Shown here piece after piece: positions 7,307-59,349 of a stretch of 64,000 bases of DNA. Both the position numbers and the translations under genes were made by a program. Each line of letters begins with the position of its first letter. Positions within the stretch are counted from its first letter, which is position 1. The notes beneath the pieces were generated by a model that searched no databases, was not told the DNA's origin, and saw nothing but the letters and a program-made list of their open reading frames with translations. The DNA is taken from NCBI RefSeq assembly GCF_055900595.2, contig NZ_CM148325.1; one strand, 5' to 3'.

Positions 7307-7690
7307 GTGTTACAACTTCTTTTAGCAGTTTTTATTGGCGGTGGTACGGGAAGCGTGGCGAGATGGCTGTTAAGTATGCGATTTAACCCGCTGCATCAGG
7401 CGATTCCGTTGGGGACGCTGGCTGCAAACCTGATTGGGGCATTCATCATAGGAATGGGATTCGCCTGGTTTAGCAGGATGACGAACATTGATCCAGTGTG
7501 GAAAGTATTAATCACCACCGGATTTTGTGGCGGTCTAACAACCTTCTCAACATTTTCGGCAGAAGTGGTGTTTTTGTTACAAGAGGGCCGCTTTGGCTGG
7601 GCATTACTGAACGTTTTCGTCAACCTTCTGGGGTCTTTTGCCATGACCGCACTGGCTTTCTGGCTGTTTTCGGCCTCAACCGCACACTAA
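7307..7690 (+). CDS. crcB: Fluoride-specific ion channel CrcB/FluC
   Basis: 127-aa hydrophobic ORF with GTG start, matches CrcB. Confidence 0.9.
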
Positions 7691-7695
7691 AGACC

Positions 7696-7724
7696 AAAAA
7701 AAACCCGCTGATTAAGCGGGTTTT
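7696..7724. terminator. Bidirectional rho-independent terminator between convergent crcB and cspE
   Basis: aaaaaaacccgctgattaagcgggtttt hairpin with flanking A-run and T-run. Confidence 0.75.
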
Positions 7725-7743
7725 GAATTCTTGCTGACGTATC

Positions 7744-7953
7744 TTACAGAGCGATTACGTTTGCAGCAGAAGGGCCTTTGGCACCGTTAGTGATTTCGAA
7801 CTCTACGCGCTGACCTTCAGCAAGAGTTTTAAAACCATTAGTCTGGATTGCAGAGAAGTGTACGAACACGTCTTTGCTGCCGTCTTCCGGAGTAATGAAA
7901 CCGAATCCTTTGGACTCATTAAACCACTTAACGTTACCTTTAATCTTAGACAT
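7744..7953 (-). CDS. cspE: Cold-shock-domain protein CspE
   Basis: Supplied ORF is 97 aa from TTG; the internal ATG at 7951-7953 gives the 69-aa [33 protein letters not shown]... CspE sequence with RNP1 motif KGFGFI. Confidence 0.95.
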
Positions 7954-8127
7954 CAAAATTACCTTTACATGAAAAATAGACACAAATGCTGTGTCGGTTA
8001 CCAGTACACCAATTGTGGTACGCTTTGTCCAGTGCAACTTTACTAAAAAGTGATAAAAGTCGCGTTATTTTTGATGTTAATTATTTTAGTCATTGATTTT
8101 AAAGAAGTTACTAAAATTTCATTTGTC

Positions 8128-8688
8128 TCAAAACTGAAAGCGCATCCAGGCAAAGTACACATTGCCATTGTTATAGGTACCCGGAATGTAGGTCATCTGA
8201 AAAGTCACTGGACCATAACCCACAGAGGCCAATGGCAGTAGAACCGGGAGAGGGATGTAATTCCAGTTATCGCGTGCCGTTACGCCAGCGGTGAATCCCA
8301 GTCCTAAATGAAAATTTTCATCCGCCAGCGGTCGCCAGGTACTTTCCCATCCGTATCCGGCAATCGGTTCCCATTTGTTCCACGAGTCCTTAAATGCCAT
8401 GGCATACAGGCCATGCCAGTTTCCTTTTTCATCCCAACGCGACTGACCAAAACCGCCCCCCCACGGTCGCTCGTTATAGCGATCGGTTTTTTCTTTGTCG
8501 TAAGCGAAACGAGCATGCCAGGTGATGGCAGGAATATATAAATCATAATGTTCAGGCTGTTGCCAGGTTTGTGTAATATTTTCTCCAAACGTTGTCATCC
8601 ACTCATCTGCGTTAGCTAAAACTTTACCAACGCTGATTAACTGAATAAAAACAAAGGAAAATATAGCGACATATTTACTCACGTTCAT
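8128..8688 (-). CDS. pagP: Lipid A palmitoyltransferase PagP (outer-membrane beta-barrel)
   Basis: ORF trimmed to the internal ATG at 8686-8688 ([12 protein letters not shown]..., 186 aa), matching PagP/CrcA. Confidence 0.92.
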
Positions 8689-9173
8689 TTGTGACCATAA
8701 AACATTTATCAAAAATCTACTACTAGCATAGCAAAACTACAATTAACATAACCTTAATAGACCCAACATGAAGAATAATCTGAATAGCTGCTCTATTTAT
8801 TTCCGCTTGTTCAAGTTAAATATTTCCGCGCATCGATTAAAGATGATGCGTCGTTTTCTGCGATGGGAATAGTCAAAAAAGAAAAACCAAGTCTTTTTTG
8901 ATGACAAAATGCAATCAAAGAAAAATTATTTTATTTTTTAACTAGATACAACAATCATCTTAACGAAGTATATAATATATATCGTCAACCCATGCTCATG
9001 GTAGATTATTTTATGAGCACACAACCGCAGCTAACACCATTGCAATTAACAAATTTGCATCAATCCACCATCAATTTACACACATTATTATGTGATAATT
9101 GCCAACCGCTAAATATGCGTTTTGTTATCTATGTATAAAAACAGCAACTTCAATGTCTTAATGGCAGTTTTTC

Positions 9174-9187
9174 TTGATTTTAATCAG
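9174..9187. promoter_or_regulatory. Putative FNR box upstream of dcuC
   Basis: TTGATtttaATCAg matches 9 of 10 positions of the FNR consensus TTGAT-N4-ATCAA, centred ~96 bp upstream of the dcuC ATG; dcuC is known to be anaerobically induced. Confidence 0.5.
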
Positions 9188-9276
9188 CATTCACCGCCAA
9201 TTTATTGGGCATATTTTTTCCTTAAGCTTTAGGAATTTTTTATTATTTACCTTGGGGCCTGGAGACAGGAAAAATT

Positions 9277-10662
9277 ATGCTGACATTCATTGAACTCCTT
9301 ATTGGGGTTGTGGTTATTGTGGGTGTAGCTCGCTACATCATTAAAGGGTATTCCGCCACCGGCGTGTTATTTGTCGGTGGCCTGTTATTGCTGATTATCA
9401 GTGCCATTATGGGGCACAAAGTGTTACCGTCCAGCCAGGCTTCAACAGGCTACAGCGCCACGGATATCGTTGAATACGTTAAAATATTGCTAATGAGCCG
9501 CGGCGGCGACCTCGGCATGATGATTATGATGCTGTGTGGCTTTGCCGCTTACATGACCCATATCGGCGCGAATGATATGGTGGTCAAGCTGGCGTCAAAA
9601 CCATTGCAGTATATTAACTCCCCTTACCTGCTGATGATTGCCGCCTATTTTGTCGCCTGTCTGATGTCTCTGGCCGTCTCTTCCGCAACCGGTCTGGGTG
9701 TTTTGCTGATGGCAACCCTGTTTCCGGTGATGGTAAACGTTGGTATCAGTCGTGGCGCAGCAGCTGCAATTTGTGCCTCTCCAGCGGCGATTATTCTTGC
9801 ACCGACTTCAGGGGATGTGGTGCTGGCGGCGCAGGCTTCCGAAATGTCGCTGATTGATTTCGCCTTCAAAACGACGCTGCCTATCTCGATTGCTGCGATT
9901 ATCGGCATGGCGATCGCCCACTTCTTCTGGCAACGTTATCTGGATAAAAAAGAGCACATCTCTCATGAAATGTTAGATGTCAGTGAAATCACCACCACTG
10001 CCCCTGCGTTTTACGCCATTCTGCCGTTCACGCCGATCATCGGAGTACTGATTTTTGACGGCAAATGGGGTCCGCAATTACACATCATCACAATTCTGGT
10101 GATCTGTATGCTGATTGCCTCCATTCTGGAGTTCATTCGCAGCTTTAATACTCAGAAAGTGTTCTCGGGCCTGGAAGTGGCTTATCGCGGGATGGCAGAT
10201 GCGTTTGCTAACGTGGTGATGCTGCTGGTTGCCGCTGGGGTATTCGCTCAGGGGCTTAGCACCATCGGCTTTATTCAAAGTCTGATTTCTATCGCCACTT
10301 CGTTTGGTTCGGCGAGTATCATCCTGATGCTGGTATTGGTGATCCTGACAATGCTGGCAGCAGTCACGACCGGTTCAGGCAATGCGCCGTTTTATGCGTT
10401 TGTTGAGATGATCCCGAAACTGGCGCACTCTTCCGGCATTAACCCGGCGTATTTGACTATCCCAATGCTGCAGGCGTCAAACCTCGGTCGTACCCTGTCA
10501 CCCGTTTCTGGCGTAGTCGTTGCGGTTGCCGGGATGGCGAAAATCTCACCATTTGAAGTCGTAAAACGCACCTCGGTGCCGGTGCTTGTTGGGCTGGTGA
10601 TTGTTATCGTTGCTACAGAGCTGATGGTGCCAGGAACGGCAGCCGCGGTAACAGGCAAGTAA
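9277..10662 (+). CDS. dcuC: Anaerobic C4-dicarboxylate transporter DcuC
   Basis: 461-aa polytopic membrane ORF matching DcuC; intact. Confidence 0.93.
   Translation: MLTFIELLIGVVVIVGVARYIIKGYSATGVLFVGGLLLLIISAIMGHKVLPSSQASTGYSATDIVEYVKILLMSRGGDLGMMIMMLCGFAAYMTHIGANDMVVKLASKPLQYINSPYLLMIAAYFVACLMSLAVSSATGLGVLLMATLFPVMVNVGISRGAAAAICASPAAIILAPTSGDVVLAAQASEMSLIDFAFKTTLPISIAAIIGMAIAHFFWQRYLDKKEHISHEMLDVSEITTTAPAFYAILPFTPIIGVLIFDGKWGPQLHIITILVICMLIASILEFIRSFNTQKVFSGLEVAYRGMADAFANVVMLLVAAGVFAQGLSTIGFIQSLISIATSFGSASIILMLVLVILTMLAAVTTGSGNAPFYAFVEMIPKLAHSSGINPAYLTIPMLQASNLGRTLSPVSGVVVAVAGMAKISPFEVVKRTSVPVLVGLVIVIVATELMVPGTAAAVTGK

Positions 10663-37737: not shown

Positions 37738-38913
<1,176 letters not shown>

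Positions 38914-58053: not shown

Positions 58054-59349
<1,296 letters not shown>

Follow-up and report, generated by a model that had tools for sequence, protein, structure and literature searches.

The window, by which we mean the whole 64-kb stretch of DNA that was analysed, comes from Escherichia coli: the 801 bases around the site studied here match several E. coli chromosomes at 100%, and 5414 of 5426 complete genomes of the species contain them. Two genes face away from each other across a long spacer, pagP (crcA), which encodes the lipid A palmitoyltransferase, and dcuC, which encodes an anaerobic C4-dicarboxylate carrier. Both assignments, made from the letters alone in an earlier note on this DNA, are correct by Pfam and by the RefSeq annotation of identical DNA (Table 1). 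RefSeq gives the gene order as crcB, cspE, pagP (minus strand), dcuC (plus strand), dpiA and dpiB. A match to the Rfam cspA thermoregulator (RF01766) covers cspE together with its leader (7696-8054, minus strand), at 123 bits (gathering threshold 78, E = 2e-32). No annotated feature lies inside the pagP/dcuC spacer in MG1655 or among the RefSeq records listed.

In MG1655 the region corresponds to 654.5-657.1 kb, in reverse-complement orientation; a window position x corresponds to 665,245 - x in NC_000913.3, and the published ChIP co-ordinates follow the older U00096.2 numbering, which runs about 778 below that of NC_000913.3. The locus is the same as the dcuC/pagP (crcA) region of K-12. Spacer identity to MG1655 is ~ 97-98%, the FNR box, the -10 and the PhoP-type repeat described below are all identical, and the differences are strain-level SNPs only. 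A pagP/dcuC spacer is present in 5375 of the 5426 complete E. coli genomes. Alleles at least 99% identical to the present one occur in only 8 of 5383 genomes, and ~ 31% of E. coli genomes carry an allele that is only 90-95% identical to it.

Table 1. Features of the pagP/dcuC region in window co-ordinates. Divergence is the mean pairwise value for the segment among seven E. coli strains and among ten Escherichia.
Feature	Position	Strand	Divergence, E. coli	Divergence, Escherichia	Basis or remark
pagP (crcA), lipid A palmitoyltransferase	8128-8688	-			Pfam PagP, 1.9e-65; RefSeq annotation of identical DNA
Divergent AT-rich intergenic region, 588 bp	8689-9276	.			G+C 0.315
pagP core promoter (segment)	8689-8765		3.5%	15.9%	
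Putative pagP -10, TATGCT	8725-8730	-			conserved block aligned with the mapped Salmonella pagP -10
PhoP-type (OmpR-family) direct repeat TATTAA-GGTTA-TGTTAA, overlapping the pagP -35 region	8743-8759	-			position
Segment between pagP promoter and central spacer	8766-8830		4.7%	20.2%	
Hypervariable AT-rich central spacer	8831-9040		12.6%	30.3%	
Spurious ORF, 48 aa (41 aa from ATG 9013)	8992-9138	+			start codons, frameshift, stops in relatives
Conserved block upstream of the FNR box	9041-9165		3.5%	13.1%	
FNR box and flanks (segment)	9166-9190		0%	6.7%	
FNR binding site TTGATTTTAATCAG	9174-9187	+			weight matrix, published ChIP, conservation
dcuC -10 region (segment)	9191-9222		2.4%	13.1%	
Putative dcuC -10, CATATT	9210-9215	+			CAnATT at a 22-nt spacing from the box (76 of 78 species)
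Predicted dcuC 5' leader, Shine-Dalgarno AGGA at 9267-9270	9222-9276	+			read from sequence
dcuC leader (segment)	9223-9276		2.5%	10.7%	
dcuC, anaerobic C4-dicarboxylate carrier	9277-10662	+			Pfam DcuC, 1.4e-151; RefSeq annotation of identical DNA

The earlier note had described ~ 590 bp of AT-rich DNA between the two starts, with long A/T tracts that would suit nucleoid-protein binding, and these observations hold up well. The spacer measures 588 bp and its G+C content is 31.5%, compared with 0.515 for the whole window; no more than 0.14% of all 588-bp segments are equally AT-rich, and the minimum of the whole 64 kb falls within the spacer. It contains 11 A/T tracts of at least five bases, a density of 18.7 per kb compared with 3.4 per kb window-wide. 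By composition and A/T tracts it belongs with the AT-rich regions silenced by H-NS, for which occupancy and derepression at this locus are published: the H-NS ChIP-chip regions 654,590-655,558 and 655,584-656,283 (U00096.2) span the whole spacer, and pagP, which H-NS represses 18-fold, is derepressed in an hns mutant, with SlyA counteracting the repression (PMC4147861). The nucleoid-protein suggestion agrees with both. RcsB and GadE also act on pagP control (PMC6106083). The best match in the spacer to the high-affinity H-NS motif TCGATAAATT has two mismatches.

Sequence divergence is distributed unevenly along the spacer (Table 1). The middle ~ 200 bp diverge several-fold more than the flanks (12.6% among the E. 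coli strains), and we therefore regard them as hypervariable AT-rich filler of the H-NS type. The core promoters are confined to ~ 75 bp next to pagP and to ~ 100 bp next to dcuC, the latter running from the FNR box to the ATG. Spacer length varies by genus, between ~ 280 bp (Klebsiella) and ~ 900 bp (one Enterobacter). Judged from an alignment of 18 genera, conservation of the block 9041-9165, immediately upstream of the FNR box, does not extend beyond Escherichia; within this genus the block is conserved, also in strains in which the overlapping open reading frame is frameshifted. It holds two weak ArcA-like repeats (9047-9062 on the minus strand, 9123-9138 on the plus strand) and a 13-nt imperfect inverted repeat (9042-9054/9090-9102). 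This block might be the only part of the spacer in which something undescribed could hide. That it does contain an undescribed regulatory element, for example one or more ArcA sites through which ArcA would raise dcuC expression 4-fold, or the promoter or body of the predicted small RNA Ssr31 (see below), is a possibility that we regard as doubtful.

The sequence TTGATTTTAATCAG, read earlier as a near-consensus FNR box ~ 96 bp before dcuC, has a single mismatch to the FNR consensus, and its centre lies 96.5 nt before the ATG at 9277. The consensus TTGAT-N4-ATCAA with up to one mismatch is found seven times in the 64 kb, where 2.7 matches are expected, and 3 of 100 shuffled sequences also reached seven. 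Since matches are this frequent (7 versus 2.7), a consensus match alone is weak evidence, and we therefore built a symmetrized position-weight matrix from the 62 other ChIP-positive sites of Myers et al. (2013). Scanned with this matrix, TTGATTTTAATCAG scores 11.5 bits and ranks third of 63,987 positions. The second-best position in the spacer reaches 2.5 bits, which leaves TTGATTTTAATCAG as the sole FNR-like site there.

Elsewhere in the window, GTGATATCAATCAA (38444-38457), inside a 395-aa ORF, scores 13.9 bits, more than the dcuC site. Myers et al. list the reverse complement of this sequence as 'Within entC', with overlapping H-NS/Fis enrichment and no FNR ChIP peak. FNR occupancy at the two places thus contrasts, the better entC motif being unbound and the weaker dcuC motif bound. 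The second-best score in the window (13.6 bits) belongs to TTGAGTTTGATCAC (58142-58155), which falls just inside a 421-aa ORF at its listed start; a 216-aa ORF is divergent from this one.

The box corresponds to a site already in the literature. Table S6 of Myers et al. (2013) lists CTGATTAAAATCAA, the reverse complement of TTGATTTTAATCAG, as 'dcuC/pagP' with a PatSer score of 12.38 at an FNR ChIP-seq peak (PMC3688515). The two 14-mers are identical, so that the published site is the present one beyond doubt. In the same study the FNR peak 'dcuC/pagP' was found by both ChIP-seq and ChIP-chip (Table S5), dcuC was FNR-activated in RNA-seq (Table S8) and classed under 'direct activation by FNR' (Table 1 of that paper), and σ70 occupancy of dcuC was higher anaerobically (PMC3688515). 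The aerobic/anaerobic expression ratios (Table S12) are 0.05 for dcuC, which is a ∼ 20-fold anaerobic induction, and 0.29 for crcA (pagP) (PMC3688515). The reading of TTGATTTTAATCAG as an FNR-type box is thus supported, the same sequence being occupied in vivo upstream of an FNR-activated gene. Peak height was 0.87 in the wild type and 0.86 in a strain lacking hns and stpA (Table S7; PMC3688515); the FNR site is not occluded by H-NS. In Table S6 the FNR site itself carries no mark of H-NS overlap, unlike in Table S3, where an H-NS region covers it (PMC3688515).

These ChIP and expression data were obtained in K-12, with which the present strain shares an identical box; over the 63-nt core promoter (9160-9222) there is one mismatch to K-12 (T for C at 9194). 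The primary study of dcuC expression, conducted with reporters, is that of Zientz et al. (1999). In an arcA mutant, dcuC expression is 4.1-fold lower and pagP expression 2.8-fold lower; the spacer has a predicted ArcA site, and no ArcA ChIP peak was detected there (PMC3798270). YeiE represses dcuC, and its binding, mapped by ChIP-exo, lies downstream of the place where RNA polymerase is bound at this gene (PMC6237786), and DcuSR does not target dcuC (PMC10636207).

The decisive evidence that the box is no chance match came from a comparison of 80 dcuC loci, one per species, from across the Enterobacteriaceae. The pattern TTGAy-N4-rTCAn occurs within 200 nt of the dcuC start in 78 of the 80 species, usually 89-107 nt before the ATG and irrespective of whether pagP is the upstream neighbour. 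The hexamer CAnATT (as CACATT, CATATT, CAGATT or CAAATT) follows at a spacing of exactly 22 nt in 76 of these 78. Apart from box and hexamer, the 18-genus alignment has no conserved island upstream of the ribosome-binding site. The seven E. coli strains compared have no variation in the box, and the 63-nt stretch containing box and -10 has at least 95% identity in all 5374 matching E. coli genomes. The promoter-proximal half-site does not follow the consensus ATCAA in any of the 78 species. It reads ATCAG or GTCAG in 72 and ATCAT or GTCAT in the other six; with 72 of 78 species alike, the departure from consensus is itself a conserved feature.

In Citrobacter amalonaticus S646 the distance from the FNR box to the dcuC ATG is 334 nt and not the usual ~ 99 nt, which suggests an insertion of ~ 235 bp between promoter and gene. 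In E. coli MB51 (NZ_CP073946.1, 1750-3057) an IS1A element has taken the place of the 5' end of pagP, a gene annotated there as partial, and of most of the spacer. What is left of the spacer is the 57 nt adjoining dcuC, and the FNR box and the -10 have therefore been lost.

Judged from conservation alone, dcuC transcription likely starts near 9222. If the conserved CATATT is the -10 element at the canonical -12 to -7, the centre of the box (9180/9181) would fall at -41.5, the class II position, which is occupied by the FNR site in 19 of the 23 FNR-activated promoters with known start sites. Myers et al. remark 'TSS not in peak region' for dcuC (PMC3688515), from which it follows that the start then on record lay elsewhere. 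An anaerobic σ70 ChIP-seq peak at 655,235 (U00096.2) converts to approximately window position 9232, adjoining the putative -10. The sequence 17 nt upstream of CATATT has no resemblance to a -35 element, as expected because a class II promoter is activator-dependent. The predicted leader would be ~ 55 nt long with AGGA 6 nt before the ATG, and its computed fold is no more stable than that of shuffled sequence (z = +0.9).

This predicted arrangement resembles that of known class II FNR promoters (such as narG, dmsA, nirB and ydfZ, with the site at -41.5), which likewise have an imperfect palindrome 22 nt upstream of the -10 and no -35; anaerobic FNR-dependent activation and ChIP occupancy, published for K-12, are also common to these promoters and dcuC. 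dcuC differs in its promoter-proximal half-site, which is ATCAG or GTCAG in most species (72 of 78) in place of ATCAA. The dcuB-fumB promoter shares with dcuC an FNR ChIP peak and anaerobic induction; however, its FNR site is at -132.5 and it depends on DcuS-DcuR, of which dcuC is not a target. We suggest that under anaerobiosis a [4Fe-4S]-FNR dimer would bind TTGATTTTAATCAG, centred at -41.5 from a start near 9222, and would recruit RNA polymerase by the class II mechanism, giving the ~ 20-fold anaerobic induction of dcuC.

On the other side of the spacer, an alignment of the pagP upstream region from 14 taxa contains two conserved elements, the motif T(G/A)TTAAG and, 23 nt downstream, the -10-like G(C/T)TA(T/A)nnT. 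The same layout has been mapped at pagP of Salmonella, where the -10 TATTAT follows at 23 nt from a PhoP box with TGTTAAG at its end (PMC3335776). By alignment with it, TATGCT would be the -10 of the E. coli gene, with a predicted start near A8718 and a leader of ~ 30 nt. The centre of the direct repeat TATTAAGGTTATGTTAA is ~ 33 nt upstream of this start. The PhoP site of crcA is reported at 32 bp from the start site in E. coli and at 44 bp in Salmonella (PMC2908699); the position of the repeat fits both the published 32 bp and the Salmonella alignment. In sequence, TATTAAGGTTATGTTAA has three mismatches to the PhoP pattern (T/G)GTTTA-N5-(T/G)GTTTA, which is chance level (195 such matches in the window). 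The ArcA-type repeat TGTTA-N6-TGTTA is the better fit, with one mismatch, and this may have a bearing on why pagP depends on ArcA. A σ70 ChIP-seq peak at 655,742 (U00096.2) converts to approximately window position 8725, and occupancy there rises from 37 to 366 anaerobically.

The putative E. coli promoter shares with Salmonella pagP, which has PhoP architecture IV and is controlled by H-NS and SlyA, the T(G/A)TTAAG motif 23 nt before the -10, the short leader and the AT-rich surroundings, and differs in that the presumed functional repeat is closer to the -10 by 11 bp, the length of one half-site. In the scheme that we favour, H-NS on the AT-rich DNA silences pagP, and SlyA, RcsB and PhoP relieve the silencing; the roles of these proteins are published, their positions here are what we infer.

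Searches for other elements in the spacer returned little. There were no matches to CRP (TGTGA-N6-TCACA, up to two mismatches), to the IHF core or to NarL heptamers, and SlyA consensus matches had four mismatches. A σ70 promoter scan found one site in the spacer versus 4.4 expected and is uninformative. RpoN holoenzyme and NtrC give genomic-SELEX (gSELEX) peaks within the spacer (PMC8743547). We rejected a σ54 promoter (TGGCAC-N5-TTGCW), as the spacer contains only matches with three mismatches and these are no more numerous than expected by chance; the gSELEX peaks may be due to an affinity for AT-rich DNA that is not site-specific. Two structures were likewise discarded. A plus-strand terminator-like hairpin at 8828-8851 is weak and is lost in other E. 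coli strains, and a perfect 10-bp AT-rich inverted repeat with a 9-nt loop (TCAAAAAAGA/TCTTTTTTGA, 8873-8901) is not preserved in them.

Taken together, we are confident that the spacer consists of two independent σ70 promoters, each close to its own gene, and AT-rich filler coated by nucleoid proteins, that dcuC is driven by FNR, probably in the class II manner, and that the small open reading frame is no gene. The bare consensus count could be taken to mean that the FNR-like sequence is a functionless chance match in AT-rich DNA, given that single-mismatch matches exceed expectation, that shuffled sequence can reach the same number and that the higher-scoring entC site (38444) is reported as unbound in vivo. 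There is virtually no likelihood of this: it is already refuted by the conservation of the box and of its spacing to the -10 (76-78 of 80 species), and by the published ChIP occupancy and FNR-dependent expression (PMC3688515). A different proposal accepts the box and lets it drive the divergent pagP as well, which would make one site the source of bidirectional anaerobic control. pagP is indeed 3.4-fold higher anaerobically, and σ70 occupancy at the adjacent peak increases anaerobically (37 to 366). However, the box is ~ 460 bp from the predicted pagP start, Table S8 of Myers et al., which lists operons that depend on FNR, has no entry for pagP/crcA (PMC3688515), and pagP expression falls 2.8-fold in the arcA mutant (PMC3798270), with an ArcA-type repeat located at the pagP -35 region. 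Because of the distance, the Table S8 result, the arcA effect and the ArcA repeat, ArcA or a loss of H-NS silencing is a simpler cause of the anaerobic rise, and we consider control of pagP by the FNR box improbable.

It is also very improbable, in our view, that the spacer encodes an unannotated small protein (8992/9013-9138) or the pagP-strand small RNA 'Ssr31' of Shigella flexneri. The reading frame is open in five of the seven E. coli strains compared, the block 9041-9165 that it overlaps is conserved within Escherichia, and Wang et al. (2016) predicted Ssr31, of ~ 295 nt, between pagP and dcuC, where it was positive by RT-PCR only (PMC4782007). RT-PCR, however, cannot distinguish a discrete small RNA from a long pagP leader or from read-through. 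An Rfam scan of 7500-10000 gave no match within 8689-9276 at E ≤ 1, promoter-like sites in the spacer are fewer than in shuffled sequence, neither of the two hairpins is kept between E. coli strains, and the locus has no annotated feature in MG1655 or among the RefSeq records listed.

The reading frame itself fares no better. Its start codons are variable: ATG 9013, the product of a lineage-specific T-to-A change that is absent from K-12, reads TTG or CTG in the remaining six of the E. coli strains compared, and the upstream ATG 8992 is ACG in two strains. In the B2 strains sampled (ATCC 25922 and JA0265) a 1-bp deletion near 9039 shortens the frame to 18 aa, yet the DNA downstream of the frameshift is still conserved. 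Escherichia whittamii and Escherichia sp. E1V33 have in-frame stops, and the frame (8992-9138) has neither a Shine-Dalgarno sequence nor a Pfam hit. On the variable starts, the B2 frameshift, the in-frame stops and the missing Shine-Dalgarno sequence we rejected a small-protein gene at 8992/9013-9138. Disbelief in the 41-codon frame, already voiced in the earlier note, was justified.

The preferred reading, two gene-proximal promoters separated by filler, places the locus among the ordinary divergent control regions: both genes are textbook cases, dcuC as a member of the FNR regulon and pagP as a target of PhoP and H-NS. The site, its occupancy by FNR and the effect on dcuC are already known from genome-scale datasets. 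To these the cross-species footprint adds the likely position of the dcuC -10 and start, which the ChIP study had left open, and with it a probable assignment of the promoter to class II. It also adds the conservation of the non-consensus ATCAG half-site, which hints at selection for sub-maximal affinity for FNR. The contrast between invariant core promoters and the divergent DNA that separates them illustrates where constraint falls in a long AT-rich intergenic region.
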